Origin: Escherichia coli
Lineage (GTDB): Bacteria; Pseudomonadota; Gammaproteobacteria; Enterobacterales; Enterobacteriaceae
Assembly (NCBI RefSeq): GCF_003334335.1
Contig: NZ_QOWQ01000078.1
Direction: 5' to 3' (one strand)
Length of the DNA: 4,565 nt
Under the pieces are notes generated by a model. That model was not told the DNA's origin, made no database searches, and worked only from the letters and a program-made list of their open reading frames with translations. A program made the position numbers and the translations under genes. This document shows positions 4,179-4,419 of this stretch, in pieces (the stretch's first letter is position 1; the number at the start of each line of letters is the position of its first letter).

Positions 4179-4419
4179 TATAATCCCTTGTGACGTAAAA
4201 ACTGCAAAACAAAAGTCCTACGCAGGAATTATTTACGTTTTACGAGAACCCTTCAATATGAATTAAATTACGGCATTAAAAATAAGAAAAAAGCCTGACA
4301 AATGAAGCATTTTAAAAACAGAAACATTCATATTTAAAATGTTAAATTGAATTGATATTTTAAATATGAATAATTTATTCGTTCTGACAGTACGAATAAG
4401 ATATGCCGTCAACAAATGC
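4179..4419 (-). promoter_or_regulatory. AT-rich chiA upstream regulatory region (promoter not resolved; likely H-NS-bound, silenced-type region), containing 15-bp and 8-bp inverted repeats
   Basis: About 240 bp of strongly AT-rich sequence between the tufA terminator and the chiA start; SD-like AAGGGA about 7 nt upstream of the chiA ATG. H-NS silencing of chiA in K-12 is established knowledge, not seen directly. Confidence 0.45.

Follow-up and report, generated by a model that had tools for sequence, protein, structure and literature searches.

A statistically unusual palindrome upstream of chiA in Escherichia coli, most likely an ordinary part of an AT-rich silencing tract

Does the long and perfect inverted repeat found between tufA and chiA in Escherichia coli control chiA expression, or is it a by-product of the AT-rich DNA in which it lies? 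The window, i.e., the whole 4565-base stretch of E. coli chromosome analyzed here, has the gene order gspO-bfr-bfd-chiA-tufA, and the repeat is located inside the 291-bp tufA-chiA spacer, the G+C content of which is 27.7%, compared with 48% for the window overall. The genes and the terminator that frame the repeat are as follows.

177-854, plus strand: gspO
883-1359, minus strand: bfr
1431-1625, minus strand: bfd
1794-4178, minus strand: chiA coding sequence (794 aa), the gene upstream of which the repeat sits
4178, minus strand: ATG of chiA
Stop codon near 4471, minus strand: 3' end of tufA, with a terminator hairpin at 4446-4419
4419..4446, minus strand: tufA intrinsic terminator, the right-hand limit of the chiA-specific segment

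On re-checking, the coordinates of the repeat and the perfect complementarity of both 15-bp arms given in a preliminary description were found to be exact, and its placement in the tufA-chiA spacer upstream of chiA, 148-193 bp from the ATG, was correct. The palindrome and the smaller repeats beside it are listed below.

4326-4340: left arm, ATTCATATTTAAAAT, spanning -105 to -119 relative to the transcription start of chiA
4341-4356: palindrome spacer, GTTAAATTGAATTGAT, 16 bp
4357-4371: right arm, ATTTTAAATATGAAT, spanning -136 to -150 relative to that start, the exact reverse complement of the left arm
4366-4378: 6-1-6 palindrome, GAATAATTTATTC, at about -145 to -157, which abuts the right arm and overlaps the second inverted repeat
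4375-4399: second, smaller inverted repeat, TTATTCGT-N9-ACGAATAA, directly adjoining the right arm

The palindrome occupies 46 bp at one locus (NC_000913.3 positions 3,470,001-3,470,046 in MG1655) and is centered at about -127.5 from the chiA transcription start. Its composition is near AT-only, with one G-C pair in the 15-bp stem and with CATAT and TTTAAA included in the arms, and it forms the GC minimum of the tufA-chiA spacer (14% at 4320-4369). When complementarity was relaxed to 90%, the repeat finder lengthened the arms to 20 nt around a 6-nt center. The second inverted repeat (4375-4399) behaved in folding as an independent hairpin beside the main palindrome. The outer arm word, AATATGAAT / ATTCATATT, occurs in four exact copies in the window (1712-1721, 4255-4263, 4326-4334, and 4363-4371), together with a one-mismatch copy at 4351-4359, and could be a half-site or merely an AT-rich word.

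The preliminary description had held that the repeat is longer than chance usually gives, and shuffling upheld this. The 242-bp spacer and its AT core were each shuffled 5000 times with dinucleotide content preserved, and perfect inverted repeats with a spacer of ≤40 were scored; the longest repeat in the 10,000 shuffles was 13 bp, none reached 14 bp or more, and P(≥12) was 0.002-0.003, so that palindromes of comparable length were not reproduced by shuffled sequence. Arithmetic from local composition gave a probability of about 1e-4 for a 15-bp repeat in the tufA-chiA spacer and an expectation of roughly 0.2 such repeats by chance per E. coli genome. In 150 kb of MG1655, only two perfect inverted repeats of at least 15 bp with a spacer of ≤40 were present, namely the palindrome and one in prophage DLP12. 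The single-stranded DNA fold of the palindrome had a predicted energy of -10.4 kcal/mol, compared with -4.4 ± 1.4 kcal/mol for shuffles (z = -4.4); the plus strand exceeded every shuffle, and the minus strand exceeded 198 of the 200 (z = -3.4). Collectively, these data confirmed that the palindrome is real and statistically unusual.

To place the repeat in its evolutionary context, orthologous tufA-chiA spacers were compared, as the preliminary description had proposed. The tufA-chiA-bfd-bfr synteny is kept in Citrobacter rodentium, Enterobacter, a Superficieibacter-like genome, and three other lineages, with ChiA proteins 67-76% identical, and the palindrome was absent from all six of these non-E. 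coli lineages (L010, L013, L014, L015, L016, and L029). In each of them the tufA terminator was recognizable, while the remaining spacer was unalignable and contained only short or imperfect inverted repeats. The palindrome is therefore a novelty of the E. coli lineage and not a conserved regulatory site. Further ChiA relatives carried either the E. coli allele (L012 and L028) or an unalignable spacer (L013 and L029), and a search for intermediate alleles that might document the origin of the repeat found no L013-type upstream DNA in complete E. coli genomes.

Within E. coli, the chiA upstream region was found in 3141-3163 of the 5426 complete genomes (~58%). The other ~42%, including O157:H7 and strain C2, are without chiA and without the whole gspC-O operon, and bfd adjoins tufA in these strains; their bfr-bfd sequence is 77% identical to the window, compared with 99% for tufA, and homology starts again at window position 4418. 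The contrast between 77% and 99% identity suggests that the whole segment was replaced rather than simply deleted. The chiA segment is thus accessory in E. coli. The boundary of this chiA indel was considered as a source of the repeat and rejected, homology resuming 47 bp from the palindrome. A mobile element, MITE, IS end, or REP-type sequence was likewise rejected, there being one locus per genome and no visible target-site duplication; a reported "second place" of the palindrome, which is single-copy per genome, proved to be its reverse-strand self-alignment, which clears the E-value threshold only where an allele has longer arms. Phage records contained no match to the palindrome, and plasmid matches were limited to mislabelled chromosomes or weak AT-rich noise. 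A XerCD dif site was also rejected: positions 4336-4346 resemble the XerD arm at 9 of 11 positions (by eye), but there is no XerC arm, and the fit is poorer in the majority allele.

Six E. coli haplotypes were compared over 4290-4420. In the commonest alleles, an A at 4341 allows the outer 2 bp on each side of the palindrome spacer to pair, yielding 17-bp perfect arms around a 12-bp spacer; the window and K-12 share an allele with G at 4341, which is the weakened 15-bp form. Strain 200164 carries an uncompensated A4338G change in the left arm (14 of 15 pairs) and two changes in the palindrome spacer. Perfect arms of 15-17 bp were retained in five of the six haplotypes; the left arm was invariant in five of the six, and the right arm in all haplotypes seen. 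Variable sites numbered 1 of 30 in the arms, 4 of 16 in the palindrome spacer, where the most polymorphic positions lie (4341, 4343, 4349, and 4354), and 10 of 85 in the flanks. The arms are thus nearly invariant in E. coli, and the prospect that they would prove unconserved between strains, raised in the preliminary description, did not materialize; this conservation says little, because the whole tufA-chiA spacer is at least 95% identical across E. coli. That the arms vary less than the palindrome spacer (p = 0.04) could mean selection on symmetry, and arm constraint is a weak hint at most. In strain NT1N34, an IS1 is inserted in the palindrome spacer (at about window position 4349), and the left arm and the 5' end of chiA are gone. 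In twelve complete E. coli genomes, identity to the 86-bp repeat region is only 80-90%, and these divergent alleles might show natural loss or rearrangement of an arm. In the K-12 derivative PG20180060, tufA is interrupted by an engineered aph(3')-IIIa cassette, which is unrelated to the palindrome.

The same data bear on a neutral explanation, to which we give a modest chance: the palindrome would be a lineage-specific quasi-palindrome produced in AT-only DNA by template-switch mutation, which H-NS may coat like any AT-rich DNA and the removal of which would change nothing. That the six syntenic lineages outside E. coli all lack it is consistent with this explanation, as are the uncompensated degradation in K-12 (G4341) and strain 200164 (A4338G), the IS1 within the palindrome spacer of one strain, and the non-significant difference (p = 0.19) when the less polymorphic arms are compared with the remaining spacer region. 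However, the persistence of perfect arms in five of the six haplotypes, the difference in polymorphism between arms and palindrome spacer, and the coincidence of the palindrome with the very AT maximum of a promoter region with documented silencing all speak against neutrality.

This silenced promoter lies between the palindrome and the chiA coding sequence. A promoter scan and the GC profile placed two further features there.

4221..4256, minus strand: chiA core promoter, with -35 TTGAAG (4256-4251) and -10 AATAAT (4233-4228)
4140..4209: second AT-rich trough (20-22% GC), at +10 to +80, which takes in some of the 5' UTR along with the first codons of chiA

The single mapped sigma-70 start of chiA transcription corresponds to about window position 4221, which is 43 nt upstream of the ATG and 7 nt downstream of the -10 hexamer. 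A start at NC_000913 position 3467918 was mapped by 5'-RACE, in agreement with the mapping of Francetic et al. 2000 (Salscheider et al. 2014). In NC_000913.3, chiA occupies 3467160-3469853, and the published start coordinate can only belong to the previous genome version, NC_000913.2. From the old chiA and tufA coordinates, we take the offset between NC_000913.2 and NC_000913.3 at this locus to be 1978, a value consistent with a SELEX peak listed at 3467930 in the chiA/tufA spacer. H-NS reportedly binds the chiA promoter region directly, and fis and crp mutations are said to have effects. Under laboratory conditions chiA is silent, and it is repressed by H-NS/StpA (Salscheider et al. 2014, citing Francetic et al. 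2000), and its mRNA in an hns stpA mutant is as high as with constitutive BglJ (Salscheider et al. 2014). The de-repression by hns (stpA) mutation is documented for the chiA promoter as a whole (Salscheider et al. 2014). The supplements of the FNR/H-NS study do not list chiA.

Motif content gave a mixed picture of H-NS recognition. Using the high-affinity motif tCGATAAATT and scoring the proV variant as well, we found that the best spacer match to a proV-type site (8 of 10; TTGATATTTT at 4352-4361) lies inside the palindrome, and that matches of at least 7 of 10 were not enriched in the spacer (5, compared with 5.6 ± 2.4 in shuffles). The palindrome and its surroundings carry a cluster of promoter-like hexamers, on both strands (5 found, 1.6 expected), as is typical of AT-rich, H-NS-covered DNA. 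Among the three functions offered in the preliminary description, namely a dimeric operator, a nucleoid-protein nucleation site, and a cruciform-prone element, the nucleoid-protein site was the best fit: the palindrome is the AT-richest spot of an H-NS/StpA-silenced region. We tentatively favor, at somewhat less than an even chance, the reading in which the chiA promoter has an upstream H-NS/StpA tract with the palindrome as its AT-richest core, and in which the symmetry of the palindrome is probably a mutational by-product.

Under this favored reading, both identical arms would be contacted by H-NS in their minor groove, which is narrow and contains TpA steps. The centers of these inverted arms are 31 bp apart, and since this amounts to about three helical turns, they would face the same side of the helix. 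From the arms, H-NS would spread and, with the AT trough at +10 to +80 as a second partner, may form a filament or bridge spanning the core promoter, with RNA polymerase excluded or trapped. The dyad symmetry itself is probably dispensable; a quasi-palindrome in AT-only DNA has probably been perfected in the E. coli lineage by hairpin-templated (template-switch) mutation. Symmetry would now be slowly decaying, from 17 bp in most strains to 15 bp in K-12 and the window and 14 of 15 in one strain, and no compensation accompanies the changes within the arms or at their inner ends. Because H-NS needs no dyad symmetry, binding by H-NS leaves a repeat of about 1-in-10,000 probability unexplained.

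Known systems offer partial parallels to this arrangement. In the URE/DRE of proU and in the bgl silencers, an AT-rich tract ~100-150 bp upstream is paired with one inside the transcribed region, as in chiA, and the chiA promoter resembles them further in being silenced by H-NS/StpA, in being relieved by antagonists such as BglJ-RcsB, and in belonging to an accessory gene. Unlike the chiA palindrome, those elements are not long perfect palindromes, and the chiA spacer differs in having no H-NS-motif enrichment and a putative H-NS binding. Quasi-palindromes are hotspots of template-switch mutation, as described by the Ripley model and by the thyA and lacZ quasi-palindrome reporters in E. coli. 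The chiA alleles are similar in that they are lineage-specific and differ at the inner arm ends (15, 16+1, and 17 bp), and the perfection of the arms would be explicable without conserved function; in contrast to such hotspots, the chiA changes mostly weaken rather than perfect the palindrome, and the template switch is putative.

A symmetry far beyond chance is what would be expected if the palindrome were the operator of a symmetric dimeric or tetrameric regulator, such as a chiA site for an H-NS antagonist (LeuO-, SlyA-, or BglJ-RcsB-type) or for a repressor. The 46 bp can be read as a nested pair of 21-bp near-palindromes placed 25 bp apart, and a tetramer footprint has this size. Such a regulator would accord with the activation of chiA by BglJ-RcsB, for which no BglJ-RcsB box was found (Salscheider et al. 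2014). The recurrence of the outer 9-mer AATATGAAT immediately upstream of the -35 hexamer (4255-4263) and the match of 4334-4345 to TTA-N6-TAA, a loose SlyA pattern, also point in this direction. However, AATATGAAT may be a compositional word, given that the chiA terminator has a further copy as its T-tail. The palindrome is 46 bp long and centered at -127, far from RNA polymerase, with its arms outside the core promoter, and patterns of Fis, IHF, CRP, ArgR (ARG-box), NagC-like, and RcsB-like sites were unmatched in the arms, although the scan is a limited test. Two G-N13-C Fis-like sites were located at the chiA core promoter and not in the arms. The palindrome is, moreover, not conserved in orthologous promoters, and compensatory changes were not seen among the six haplotypes. 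When a predicted motif ~150 bp upstream of the start was mutated, activation by BglJ-RcsB was unaffected; the exact mutated bases are not given in that paper (Salscheider et al. 2014). The 6-1-6 palindrome GAATAATTTATTC may perhaps be that motif.

LysR- and MarR-type operators, such as those of LeuO and SlyA, share with the palindrome a dyad symmetry, an AT-rich composition, a location in an H-NS-silenced promoter region, and TTA-N6-TAA, whereas the palindrome differs from them in its 46-bp length and its position at -127, in its poor conservation, and in having neither an arm consensus nor compensation. The operator function proposed in the preliminary description is thus weakened by the location at -105 to -150, the length of 46 bp, the unmatched consensus patterns, and the absence from six syntenic lineages, and we consider it unlikely. 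Its more specific form, in which a symmetric regulator acting at the palindrome would open silenced chiA, and the chitinase/type II secretion pathway along with it, in a manner dependent, for example, on BglJ-RcsB or LeuO, is together with another possibility, that of a part of a plus-strand sRNA ending at the bidirectional tufA terminator, held to be decidedly unlikely. Separately, a plus-strand promoter-like site, TTTAAA-18-TAAAAT, with a start at about 4347, lies upstream of the second hairpin and the bidirectional tufA terminator; such a promoter would give an sRNA-like transcript of ~100 nt, for which no evidence was found.

The repeat could also act in RNA, as a weak back-up terminator or insulator against read-through from the very highly expressed tufA into the silent chiA promoter, or as a plus-strand stop of antisense transcripts into tufA, and its position about 50-120 nt downstream of the tufA terminator would suit such a role. 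On the minus strand, i.e., in the tufA/chiA direction, it is predicted to form a 15-17-bp A-U stem of -12 to -16 kcal/mol followed by the U-rich tail GUUUCUGUUUUU; for the plus strand (window 4306-4380), the prediction is a stem of 20 bp without interruption, two G.U pairs included, at -17.7 kcal/mol, and the polymorphisms G4341A and A4338G keep pairing on this strand only. Two other stem changes, however, break pairing, and the minus-strand stem is almost pure A-U with a loop of 12-16 nt. Like a Rho-independent terminator, the palindrome combines a hairpin with a U-rich stretch downstream of a gene (tufA), but it differs from one in its A-U stem and long loop, the true tufA terminator lying 50 bp upstream; such terminators have a G+C-rich stem, a 3-8-nt loop, and a U-tract directly after the stem, whereas the palindrome has one G-C pair in 15, a 16-nt loop on the minus strand, and a U-rich tail. 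The terminator scan did not flag the palindrome, other lineages have the main terminator only, no Rfam family matched anywhere in the window at E ≤ 1, and the MG1655 annotation has no RNA at the locus. Overall, we regard a role as an RNA hairpin as very unlikely.

A cruciform, or a supercoil-sensitive element coupling the chiA promoter to local superhelicity, is suggested by the near AT-only arms of 15-17 bp and by single-strand folds that exceed those of shuffles on the plus and minus strands (z = -4.4 and -3.4), and is extremely improbable in our judgement. The spacer of 12-16 bp is unfavorable for extrusion. Transcription makes positive supercoils downstream, according to the twin-domain model, and the site, just downstream of the heavily transcribed tufA, would be expected to receive positive rather than negative supercoils.

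What the palindrome is matters because chiA and the neighboring gsp secretion genes constitute a textbook cryptic, H-NS-silenced system, and a link has been made between ChiA and the adhesion of pathogenic E. coli. If the operator reading were true, the palindrome would be a handle on the natural inducing signal of chiA. If it is the AT core of a silencing tract, it would provide a precisely placed upstream element for models of H-NS bridging and also a clean natural example of a lineage-specific quasi-palindrome. In both cases the result is small and local. Most likely, the palindrome belongs to the AT-rich silencing tract as an ordinary component and is not a new control element.

Several minor features of the window were recorded along with the repeat. 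The chiA protein has 897 aa in K-12 and 794 aa in the window, and alleles in E. coli span 701-900 aa; the differences in length correspond to the number of ~300-nt repeat units that encode the chitin-binding domain and linker, three of which are present in the window.

3309-3474: chiA repeat unit
3633-3798: chiA repeat unit
3936-4101: chiA repeat unit

Downstream of the chiA stop codon (window 1731-1749) lies a terminator hairpin, GGGCTAC-CAAAA-GTAGCCC, with a T-tail, and an AT-rich Fur-box-like sequence was noticed upstream of bfd (window 1650-1680). In UniRef, "Endochitinase 11, Metarhizium anisopliae" (CHI11_METAN), an entry of 522 aa, shares 88% identity with E. coli ChiA and looks like a bacterial contaminant entered as a fungal protein.
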